Translations under genes and position numbers: made by a program
Notes under the pieces: model-generated
What the model was told of the DNA's origin: nothing
Databases searched by the model: none
Seen by the model: only the letters and a program-made list of their open reading frames with translations
From: a virus
Taxonomy: Duplodnaviria > Heunggongvirae > Uroviricota > Caudoviricetes
IMG/VR virus record: IMGVR_UViG_3300029516_000112
Reading direction: 5' to 3' (one strand)
DNA length: 7,582 nt
Part shown: positions 3,167-6,294 of the stretch, in pieces
Position numbering within the stretch: the first letter of the stretch is position 1
Layout: the number at the start of each line of letters is the position of its first letter

Positions 3167-3417
3167 ATTAATATTAAATCGGATTATTTTTAGCGCTGAA
3201 TGTGAAATTTAAATAAAAAGGACTCTTCCATGAGTCAAAATCCTTGAAATCTTAAGGGTAAGATAAAAGGTCATTAGACAGAATGACACGTTTTATTAAT
3301 AAATAAAGCTATTGTTTCATTCGTGTGTTTTTCTTTACAAAAGTAATCCTTGCTATGGTTGGTTAATCATGCGTTAATGGTGTTCTGGTTTGTTACAAAA
3401 TTATCTGAAGCAGTCAT

Positions 3418-3426
3418 TGTTATAAT
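3418..3426 (+). promoter_or_regulatory. Candidate extended -10 element (TGT-TATAAT) upstream of cspI
   Basis: TGnTATAAT at 3418-3426 in an AT-rich region about 100 nt upstream of the cspI start; no good -35. Sequence match only. Confidence 0.25.
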
Positions 3427-3529
3427 TTTATTATTTGTACCTCTTGAGATTTCCTTGTTGGTTTTTCTCTCTGATATTTTTTTTCGGACCATTCTGCCCA
3501 AGGGCTAACTTCTTCAAAAGGTAATAATG

Positions 3530-3742
3530 ATGTCTAACAAAATGACTGGTTTAGTGAAATGGTTTAACCCTGAAAAAGGTTTTGGTTTCATCACGCCGAA
3601 AGATGGTAGCAAAGATGTGTTTGTGCATTTCTCAGCTATTCAGAGCAACGATTTCAAAACGTTAACTGAGAATCAGGAAGTCGAATTTGGTATTGAGAAC
3701 GGACCTAAAGGCCCTGCAGCTGTTCATGTAGTGACACTTTGA
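3530..3742 (+). CDS. cspI: Cold-shock protein, CspA family (CspI-like)
   Basis: 70 aa [38 protein letters not shown]... with RNP1/RNP2-type cold-shock-domain motifs (KGFGFI, VFVHF). Start taken as the second ATG (3530), SD AAAGGT 7 nt upstream; the ORF track begins one codon earlier at 3527. Confidence 0.9.
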
Positions 3743-3946
3743 GGTAGAAAATATTACAAACCATATTCACTTTAGATGCCCGTGTTGCCATGGTTCTCAG
3801 TATAGAACATCATCTTTTGATGTTTCTGACAGAAATCCTTTCGGGGCAAAATGTATCTTTTGTAAATCAATGATGATTACATTTGATAATATTTCACAAT
3901 ACTTAAATGTTAGCCATCTGTCGTTAGATTTAAGAAAGTGAAAATG

Positions 3947-4416: not shown

Positions 4417-4590
4417 ATGAACATTGAAGAGTTAAAAACAAAAACAGAAGCAGATATTTCTGAATATATAACAAAAAAAATCATTGAGCTTAAGAAAAAG
4501 ACCGGGAAAGAAGTTACCAGTATCCAGTTTACTGCACGGGAAAAAATGACTGGTCTTGAAAGCTATGATATCAAGATTGATTTAATCTAG
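4417..4590 (+). CDS. gnsB: GnsA/GnsB-family small protein
   Basis: 57 aa MNIEELKTKTEADISEYITKKIIELKKKTGKEVTSIQFTAREKMTGLESYDIKIDLI, colinear with GnsA/GnsB as I recall them (MNIEELKKQAE...FTAREKMTGLESYDVKI...). SD AGAGGA upstream; the ORF track starts at an earlier in-frame codon (4324) that lacks an SD. Confidence 0.8.
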   Translation: MNIEELKTKTEADISEYITKKIIELKKKTGKEVTSIQFTAREKMTGLESYDIKIDLI

Positions 4591-4655
4591 CATGTTTATA
4601 GTATTAGCATCAATTTCTCATCAGATGCTATTCAACAATACAAATTACCCATAAA

Positions 4656-4676
4656 CCTCGTTTTTACGGGGTTTTG
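4656..4676 (+). terminator. Possible weak rho-independent terminator after gnsB
   Basis: CCTCG / CGGGG stem (one G-U wobble) with a 6-nt loop, followed by TTTTGTT. Confidence 0.3.
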
Positions 4677-4743
4677 TTATATTTAAACATTACCGAATAG
4701 ATATAAATCTCGATTGTCGATGGTATTGGTTGTGTGACAATAC

Positions 4744-4747
4744 CTAG
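4744..4747. repeat. CTAG target-site duplication, left copy, flanking the miniature IS5-like element
   Basis: CTAG immediately outside the left terminal inverted repeat; an identical CTAG abuts the right end at 4857-4860. Confidence 0.55.
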
Positions 4748-4856
4748 GGAAGGTGCGAATAAGTCACCAAACGCAAAAAAACGCCTATGTAAGTGATTGA
4801 ATTTAATTGACTAAAAGTTTCATTTTCGTTGCGGAGGGTACTTATTCGCACCTTCC
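4748..4856. mobile_element. Miniature non-autonomous element (MITE-like, 109 bp) with IS5-type terminal inverted repeats
   Basis: Perfect 17-bp inverted repeats GGAAGGTGCGAATAAGT (4748-4764) and ACTTATTCGCACCTTCC (4840-4856). The first 16 bp equal the IS5 left terminal repeat as I recall it. Flanked by direct CTAG repeats, consistent with IS5's 4-bp duplication at YTAR targets. The 75-bp interior is AT-rich with no ORF. Confidence 0.6.
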
Positions 4857-4860
4857 CTAG
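4857..4860. repeat. CTAG target-site duplication, right copy
   Basis: Direct repeat of 4744-4747 immediately outside the right terminal inverted repeat. Confidence 0.55.
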
Positions 4861-4998: not shown

Positions 4999-5205
4999 AT
5001 GCATAAAGATCAATACACTGATGCCCCCTCCCAGGAGCAGGTTCGTGTAAAAACTATGCTTAATAGCACCATTTCGATGGGTTACCCGGATGTTGTAATT
5101 GCATGTATAGAACATCAAGTATCTCTGGAAGCATTCAGGGCAATTGAGGCCGCGTTAGTAAAGCACGATAAGAATACGAAGGATTATTCCCTGGTGGTTG
5201 ACTGA
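4999..5205 (+). CDS. Hypothetical small protein
   Basis: 68-aa ORF with GGAG 8 nt upstream of the ATG; no recognisable motifs. A minus-strand ORF (4933-5118) overlaps it; the + ORF is preferred because all neighbouring genes are on + and it has an SD. Confidence 0.4.
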
Positions 5206-5571
5206 TCACCATAACTGCTAACCATTCTGACCATTTCACAAGTGACAGAGTCAATATCGTATTCTGTCACTGTAAGGCTAATACAGTACTGCAATTCAAC
5301 TACAGCAATGCCTCGTATTTAGGTGAATTTACAATATCGTCCAGTTCGGATGCCGGCTGCATTTCTGAAGATAAGGCATTTCGGTTCGCGTATTTTCCCC
5401 TCATGCTCGTCAGTCCTGCGCGTAGTAAGAAACAGGACACTCACACTAATTTGTGTGGGCATGCTGTGATGTCCTTCTGAATTATCCCCATGCCATTATG
5501 TAACGCTCTGTTTCAGATGCTCGTCACGGTTGTCAGGCTGTCGGGTCCTCCCAGTGGGGGTCCCTGCCACG

Positions 5572-5583
5572 GGGCGGGAGCGT
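5572..5583. other. Candidate cosN (cohesive-end site) within a lambda-like cos region (~5540-5600)
   Basis: CGGGTCCTCCC...CACG GGGCGGGAGCGT CGCGG parallels the lambda junction as I recall it (ACGGGTCCTTTCC...TTACG GGGCGGCGACCT CGCGG); 9 of 12 positions of the lambda cohesive end are shared. It lies ~185 bp upstream of the small-terminase gene, as cos does in lambda. Confidence 0.4.
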
Positions 5584-5766
5584 CGCGGAAAAAGACTAGT
5601 TTTTGCATTTCCATGGCGGCGGCAGCATGTTTGGTAATTTATTGATAATTAAAAGTTATTTCTCTTTTCACCTGTACAATATTTTTTCTCCCTGTCATTA
5701 GACCAGTTTGCAATTAATTGAAATATATAAATAAACCTGATTTTCACCTGCCAGATGGAGTTGCTT

Positions 5767-6294
5767 ATGTCAAATGTGAGCGGGATCGGTGATGCTTATT
5801 ACTGGAGTGTTTTTAAAATCGCCGAGGCCTTTGGGCTTCACCGGGACACAGTAAAAAAACGGCTCCTCGCGGCCAACACTCCTGTGGCTGCGACTGTCAG
5901 GGGGAACCCCGTTTACGCCCTGCAGCATGTCGGGCCCGCCCTGTTTAGTGTGAAGCATGAGGCAGCAGACTCTGTTCATGATCCATCCCGTATGGAGCCG
6001 AAAGAGAGAAAAGACTGGTACCAGTCTGAAAATGAAAGGATCAAGCTGGAAAAGGAGCAGCGAAAACTCATCCCAGTTGATGAAGTAGTCATCGTCTATT
6101 CGTCCATGAGAAAGGCTGTCGTCCAGGTTCTGGAGACAATTCCGGATGTTCTTGAACGCGATTGCGCCCTGACTCCTCAGGCCGTCGGCGTTGTACAGCA
6201 GGCCATTGATGACCTGCGATACACTCTTCAGGAAAAATCCTACGAGGCTTGTGCTGCTGAATTAATTCCTGATGAGGAAGGAGAGAGTCTCTAG
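5767..6294 (+). CDS. Terminase small subunit (DNA-recognition subunit)
   Basis: ORF directly upstream of, and almost abutting, the large terminase gene. Start taken as ATG 5767 (MSNVSG..., GGAG 6 nt upstream); in-frame alternative at 5755. The N-terminus (YWSVFKIAEAFGLHRDTVKKRL) looks like a helix-turn-helix and the C-terminus is acidic. Not lambda Nu1 by sequence. Confidence 0.7.
   Translation: MSNVSGIGDAYYWSVFKIAEAFGLHRDTVKKRLLAANTPVAATVRGNPVYALQHVGPALFSVKHEAADSVHDPSRMEPKERKDWYQSENERIKLEKEQRKLIPVDEVVIVYSSMRKAVVQVLETIPDVLERDCALTPQAVGVVQQAIDDLRYTLQEKSYEACAAELIPDEEGESL

Follow-up and report, generated by a model that had tools for sequence, protein, structure and literature searches.

The stretch of DNA analyzed here (7,582 bp, hereafter the window) comes from a lambdoid prophage of Qin-like type, of which it forms the late region. 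Its first part comprises two ORFs with a TolA C-terminal domain, followed by genes encoding a holin, a DUF1327 protein, a lysozyme, and an Rz/DUF2514 protein, while its second part comprises cspI with its 5′-UTR thermoregulator, ynfN, gnsB, a 109 bp non-coding element (nt. 4748–4856), an ORF encoding a 68 a.a. ybcW-like protein, and a DUF1441 gene. At its left edge, upstream of both TolA-like ORFs, the window strongly matches the Rfam model of the sRNA STnc100 (nt. 84–274, + strand; 114 bits compared to a gathering score of 47). Next to the holin, on its upstream side, the two TolA-like ORFs (nt. 385–813 and 964–1359, + strand; Pfam E = 2e-23 and 1e-14, respectively) form a tandem pair of paralogs; both show an N-terminal hydrophobic stretch ending in a cysteine, and their products may be lipoproteins. 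Such TolA mimics, coming from a prophage, could have a bearing on the entry of colicins or phages. The thermoregulator is of the cspA type (nt. 3372–3788, + strand; Rfam, 107 bits) and spans the cspI-like cold-shock gene (nt. 3527–3742). Further downstream, ~550 bp (nt. 5206–5754) lack a convincing ORF ahead of the DUF1441 gene (nt. 5755–6294), which in the related E. coli FDAARGOS_497 genome is followed by the large subunit of the terminase; this interval is a plausible place for the cos/packaging site.

The element itself displays a 17 + 75 + 17 architecture. The left terminal inverted repeat (17 nt, GGAAGGTGCGAATAAGT; nt. 4748–4764, + strand) is the perfect complement of the right repeat (ACTTATTCGCACCTTCC on the + strand; nt. 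4840–4856, − strand), and the core between them (nt. 4765–4839) is non-coding, partly self-complementary, and AT-rich, with 36% GC compared to 44% in the window. Each repeat is bordered on its outer side by a CTAG tetranucleotide (nt. 4744–4747 and 4857–4860), and a repeat finder accordingly reported arms (nt. 4744–4764 and 4840–4860) that are 100% complementary over 21 nt with the CTAG, or 17 nt without it, around a 75 nt spacer. The ORF list of the window holds no ORF of 40 a.a. or more inside nt. 4748–4856 and none that fits the core, and the coding of a transposase is impossible within 109 bp. The perfect 17 bp repeats, the AT-rich non-coding interior, and the direct CTAG repeats had all been described in an initial annotation made from the sequence alone, and each was confirmed here.

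The outermost 16 nt of both ends correspond to the IS5 16-mer GGAAGGTGCGAATAAG, which occurs exactly twice in the window (nt. 4748–4763, + strand; nt. 4841–4856, − strand). In shuffled versions of the window, the mean number of matches to this 16-mer with up to three mismatches was 0.04, and two matches were seen in 0 of 200 shuffles. A rough analytic expectation puts the chance of a perfect 17 nt inverted repeat with arms less than 200 nt apart in 7.6 kb at ~1e-4. Given that the 16-mer pair lies at both ends and was unmatched in 200 shuffles, the element is not a chance palindrome.

To find the empty site, 5,426 complete E. coli genomes were searched with an 801 bp query spanning the element. 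About 600 of these genomes cover at least 80% of the query, with the best match being an allele shorter by 113 bp; the top genomes align in two pieces that cover 87% of the query at identities of up to 100%, over a length of 688 bp rather than 801 bp. The alignment to E. coli FDAARGOS_497 reads GACAATAC-CTAG-TCTTTCC, base for base the empty allele that the initial annotation had predicted, with CTAG present once compared to twice in the window. The filled and empty alleles are exactly 113 bp apart, corresponding to the 109 bp element and one CTAG, and the CTAG repeats are therefore a true target-site duplication, as had been claimed. The filled allele at this site was found in 0 of the 5,426 E. 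coli genomes and in none of the viral and metagenome contigs retrieved. As the window copy is 100% identical to copies elsewhere and its site is filled in no other genome searched, these comparisons indicate that the insertion in the window is recent.

The insertion struck neither neighboring gene. The upstream gene gnsB (nt. 4417–4590, + strand; GnsA/GnsB family, Pfam GnsAB_toxin, E = 2e-33), also present at the FDAARGOS_497 locus, is undisrupted, and the intrinsic-terminator-like hairpin and T-tract that follow it (nt. 4653–4684, + strand) are intact, ~60 bp upstream of the insertion. Downstream, the ORF of the 68 a.a. hypothetical protein (nt. 4999–5205, + strand), for which no Pfam family was found, starts 139 bp past the right CTAG, in keeping with the location first given to the element, between the gnsB terminator and the next ORF. 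The accompanying idea that the element could affect expression found no sign in its favor, as a promoter and terminator scan returned no consensus promoter or intrinsic terminator inside it. Fold prediction, which had been proposed as a check, showed that either strand, taken as RNA or single-stranded DNA, forms a long hairpin (about −41 kcal/mol, z about −7); this stable fold is expected of a MITE (an inverted-repeat transposable element of miniature size) and is not evidence for an RNA function. An Rfam scan of the element at a permissive threshold produced only noise (plant miRNA hairpin models, E = 0.1–0.4, far below gathering scores). A read-through transcript, if any, would gain a stable 109 nt hairpin. 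Given that no gene or terminator was struck and no consensus promoter or terminator is carried, the window insertion is probably neutral. It matters little in itself, being a clean polymorphism in a prophage intergenic region, and is of use chiefly as a strain or lineage marker.

The relation of the element to IS5 was assessed against the annotated IS5A copy of E. coli K-12, whose ends begin GGAAGGTGCGAATAAGC... and GGAAGGTGCGAACAAGT..., as do those of ISKpn26. The ends of the element (GGAAGGTGCGAATAAGTCACC... and GGAAGGTGCGAATAAGTACCC...) are identical at 16/16 positions to the first IS5A/ISKpn26 end and at 15/16 to the second, which upholds the description of the ends as IS5-type. Position 13 is T in both arms of the element, whereas the two IS5 ends differ there, one having T and the other C. 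The initial annotation had named the matching IS5 end the left one; the match is exact, but left depends on convention, and when IS5A is oriented by its transposase gene, the exactly matching end lies downstream of insH. Both arms of the element are indeed of this one type, with T13 in each, but this is not peculiar to it. The ends of an IS5-group IS in Vibrio scophthalmi (1189 bp; its transposase shares 80% identity with InsH and has the domains DDE_Tnp_1 and DUF772) are symmetrical too, both of them being the same as the element ends over 18/18 nt, so that T13 on either side is nothing unusual for the IS5 group. The published left inverted repeat (IRL) of ISEc68 likewise equals the 17-mer of the element at 17/17 positions, while its right inverted repeat (IRR) differs from the element end at 2/17 positions (both taken from PMC6763765 alone). 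In the literature, the 16-mer was found in a single paper, in the context of ISEc68.

Beyond nt 17–18, no similarity was seen to IS5A, ISKpn26, the Vibrio IS, or the 268 IS5-type ends listed. IS5 and ISKpn26 thus resemble the element in the 16 nt terminal repeat, the 4 bp duplication, and the YTAR target (including CTAG), whereas IS5 is 1195 bp long with a transposase gene and the element, at 109 bp, lacks such a gene and is unrelated to IS5 in its interior. The Vibrio IS and ISEc68 are also full-length autonomous elements that share the ends, with the interior of the Vibrio IS being unlike that of the element. As its interior matches no IS examined, the element is a MITE rather than a deleted IS5, which bears out the original reasoning. 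Internal IS5 sequences have been implicated in the activation of neighboring genes; with an interior unrelated to that of IS5, the element lacks these sequences. None of IS5A, ISKpn26, the Vibrio IS, and the 268 ends listed shares its subterminal or interior sequence with the element as a parent IS would, and descent by internal deletion from a parent IS is therefore only hypothetical.

The element is very probably an IS5-group MITE that was put into CTAG by an IS5-type transposase from elsewhere in the cell. Its 17 nt ends would be the sites recognized and cleaved by an IS5-type DDE transposase that a full-length IS at another location in the cell would have supplied in trans; candidates are the IS5 enzyme InsH and its near-identical counterparts from ISKpn26, ISEc68, and relatives. 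The target would have been a CTAG tetranucleotide of the Qin-like prophage, with the gnsB terminator on one side and the next small ORF on the other, and filling in of a 4 nt staggered cut would produce the CTAG...CTAG duplication. Which enzyme acted, and its action in trans, we infer solely from the identity of the ends and the type of target. The putative mobilization in trans is supported by the co-residence of ISKpn26 with 15 copies of the element on an Enterobacter kobei plasmid (see below). Among the matches listed, a search of plasmids with the InsH protein returned IS5 and ISKpn26 at 97–100% identity.

The reading that survives best beside this one, though we consider it improbable, is that of a genuine MITE moved by another enzyme, the candidate being an IS of the IS5 group that comes from aquatic Gammaproteobacteria, of the Aeromonas, Vibrio, or Shewanella type, and resides on the same plasmids. 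Scanning species-representative genomes for the 17-mer, we found it, among the matches listed, to be very common and always beside YTAR in Shewanella, Marinomonas, Amphritea, Aeromonas, Vibrio, and relatives, on full-length ISs as well as on several unrelated MITEs (~57 to 263 bp). These listed matches came mostly from marine taxa and included one copy of an Aeromonas sub-family of the element, with neither a parent IS nor a copy of the sub-family in the window among them. The existence of a sibling sub-family in Aeromonas would also fit an aquatic enzyme, as would positions 17–18, which are matched by the Vibrio IS and the ISEc68 IRL but not by the otherwise exact IS5 end. However, within E. 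coli chromosomes, and on a plasmid of Enterobacter that also bears ISKpn26, the element has been amplified, its first 16 nt are the canonical IS5 inverted repeat, and its target and duplication length are exactly as known for IS5.

Far less credible is an internally deleted IS5 formed in place, i.e., a remnant rather than a member of a MITE family. While the 16 nt terminal repeats are identical to an IS5 end, the comparison of interiors refutes this origin, with no similarity to IS5A or ISKpn26 past nt 17 at either end; furthermore, T13 stands in both arms compared to T/C in IS5, identical 109 bp copies occur at a minimum of 51 different sites in many genera, and a sibling of the same length with 72% identity exists in Aeromonas. 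The weakest proposal, that the prophage natively possesses the element as a structured feature, for example a regulatory hairpin, a terminator, or a gene for a small RNA, with a coincidental likeness to IS5 ends, draws on the very stable hairpin formed by either strand and can be dismissed almost entirely, given that the locus lacks the element in ~600 genomes otherwise up to 100% identical there, that copies lie in unrelated genes, plasmids, and genera, and that neither an Rfam match above noise, a T-tract terminator, nor a consensus promoter was found.

The existence of other copies, anticipated from the IS5-group MITE interpretation, was amply verified. The 117 bp segment (the element with both CTAG copies) was found at 134 places in 32 of the 5,426 E. 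coli genomes, on chromosomes and plasmids alike, with a median of one copy per positive genome and a maximum of 31 in strain 24AR0357, followed by 19 each in ECONIH5 and MMC-J-0020. Among plasmids, 89 carried it, at 120 places altogether, and these belong to nine genera (Enterobacter, Escherichia, Aeromonas, Salmonella, Klebsiella, Vibrio, Citrobacter, Providencia, and Raoultella), and the same search showed a second tier of matches at 80–90% identity. The copy on an Aeromonas caviae plasmid (97% identity) belongs to the enterobacterial sub-family. The element was also present in seven IMG/VR viral contigs and 28 metagenome contigs. On this sequence evidence, the element is real, mobile, and multi-copy. 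It crosses genera on resistance-type plasmids and is amplified to 15–31 copies in some replicons.

Several copies lie within genes, namely yibH, gspC, a terminase gpA, a DUF5507 gene, and a TPR gene, all of which are annotated as frameshifted or partial pseudogenes, while further inspected copies adjoin yiaA and ptsP. The element inactivates genes in clinical and livestock E. coli, and it is unannotated in every inspected record, including that of phage HK97; therefore, annotation pipelines report "frameshifted" pseudogenes without naming the cause.

An amplification was seen on the 278 kb E. kobei plasmid NZ_AP022447.1, with 15 copies reported, 14 of which were extracted. All 14 share a private T-to-C change at element position 106 (T106C; position 4 from the right end, GGAGGG...), and therefore appear to descend from a single master copy in one amplification burst. 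Perfect duplications are kept by 12 of the 14 T106C copies, from which it follows that the imperfect right repeat remains transposition-competent and that position 106 tolerates change. This plasmid also holds two copies of ISKpn26, one of them intact with its own CTAG duplication.

Elements of this kind are ordinary and have already been described. A "novel MITE" with a 75 bp core, 17 bp terminal inverted repeats, and 4 bp direct repeats was reported on the Aeromonas plasmid pAC3 (Kim et al., mSphere 2017; PMC5444012) and found in other Aeromonas plasmids and chromosomes, in Aeromonas only; the term "IS5" occurs 0 times in the text of that work, and the MITE was not linked to IS5 (PMC5444012). 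We located the pAC3 copy at nt. 11202–11310 of NZ_KM204147 (109 bp, with CTAG repeats). It is colinear with the window element at 71–72% identity over the full length, without net length change, and the two share a conserved central block (ATTGA..TTAA.TGACTAAAA.TTTCATTTT). The dimensions and the left repeat are identical, whereas the two cores differ in most of their left half, and the pAC3 MITE is reported in Aeromonas, while the sub-family of the window is mainly found in Enterobacterales. The shared colinearity, dimensions, and central block make the window element a sibling of the pAC3 MITE, with 71–72% identity being low enough for a separate sub-family. By these comparisons, the window element is an unnamed enterobacterial sub-family of a described MITE family, with the insertion site being new. 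No name for the enterobacterial form was found in the literature, and the element is not listed in a 2024 MITE review. By tying the 2017 Aeromonas MITE to the IS5 group, our comparison provides a candidate transposase for the pAC3 MITE.

Other MITEs share less with the element. Those of Marinomonas, Amphritea, and Neptuniibacter (ten loci among the matches listed) bear the terminal 17-mer of the element as inverted pairs flanked by YTAR, but range from ~57 to 263 bp with unrelated cores; the same end on unrelated cores shows repeated, independent births of MITEs from IS5-group ends in marine Gammaproteobacteria. MITESen1/TIMEs and ERIC (MITEEc1) are, like the element, small non-autonomous inverted-repeat elements of Enterobacterales. 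ERIC, however, is not known to carry IS5-type ends and occurs in almost every E. coli, compared to 32 of 5,426 genomes for the element. MITESen1 was considered as a name for the element and rejected, as it is by description Tn3-derived (PMC13367494), in contrast to the IS5-type ends and 4 bp duplication seen here; the Tn3-family ends that this description implies are absent from the element.

Target sites were surveyed at the junctions of 51 distinct insertion sites among the extracted loci, giving 102 flanking 4-mers. Perfect 4 bp duplications were present at 31/51 sites (CTAA at 13, CTAG at 12, TTAG at four, and TTAA at two), and 91/102 flanking 4-mers fit YTAR, compared to 1.1% of the 4-mers in the window. 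A 4 bp duplication at YTAR is a hallmark of IS5. At the other 20/51 sites, the two flanking 4-mers differ, although nearly all are still YTAR; taken alone, such unequal flanks are unexpected for simple transposition. In metagenome contigs they may reflect assembly chimerism. Among finished replicons, imperfect flanks were found at 6/25 sites, including one in gspC. This copy, which splits gspC in E. coli EA7 (locus L171, nt. 604–712), shows an apparent 5 bp duplication (CTTAG) rather than a flank mismatch. Point mutation was considered as an origin of the mismatched duplications and rejected, since the 109 bp bodies are 99–100% identical, which makes mutation an unlikely cause.

Two copies with mismatched flanks were examined further. 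In E. coli PK13 (locus L168, nt. 605–713), the element is flanked by CTAG and CTAA and abuts a truncated O-antigen ligase gene; the same junction recurs in four more genomes and one metagenome contig. Other genomes hold only the right flank (part of the O-antigen ligase gene), never contiguous with the left flank, which suggests that the PK13 copy marks a deletion or recombination joint. In phage HK97, an unannotated, 100% identical copy (nt. 2504–2612 of the extracted locus L001; nt. 19046–19160 of the phage genome) lies between J and stf, flanked by TTAA and CTAA. On the J side, homology to the J genes of other phages begins 6 to 8 nt from the element, while on the stf side, homology to HK022-type phages ends 80 bp before it, and no other phage in the collection searched has both flanks contiguous. 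The HK97 joint coincides also with the J/stf gene boundary, which leaves a causal role of the element there unproven.

Both of the mismatched-flank copies tested are thus located at recombination or mosaic joints, consistent with an exchange between two copies at different sites. The initial suggestion that the element may seed rearrangements thereby gains indirect support from the PK13 and HK97 joints, but none from the copy in the window. Tentatively, and with considerable doubt, the enterobacterial sub-family could be an unnamed, active MITE that spreads between genera on plasmids and phages in bursts of 15–31 copies per replicon or genome, with its copies serving as portable homology for recombination between replicons. 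Were this the case, the element would both knock out genes and promote recombination at its copies, accounting for the location of the tested copies with mismatched YTAR flanks at joints. It is the tie of the 2017 Aeromonas MITE to the IS5 group, the evidence for recent bursts and for spread across genera, and the mismatched-flank copies at rearrangement joints that are worth keeping from this analysis. More speculatively, some mismatched duplications could arise from transposition itself, by carry-over of flanking bases from the donor site.
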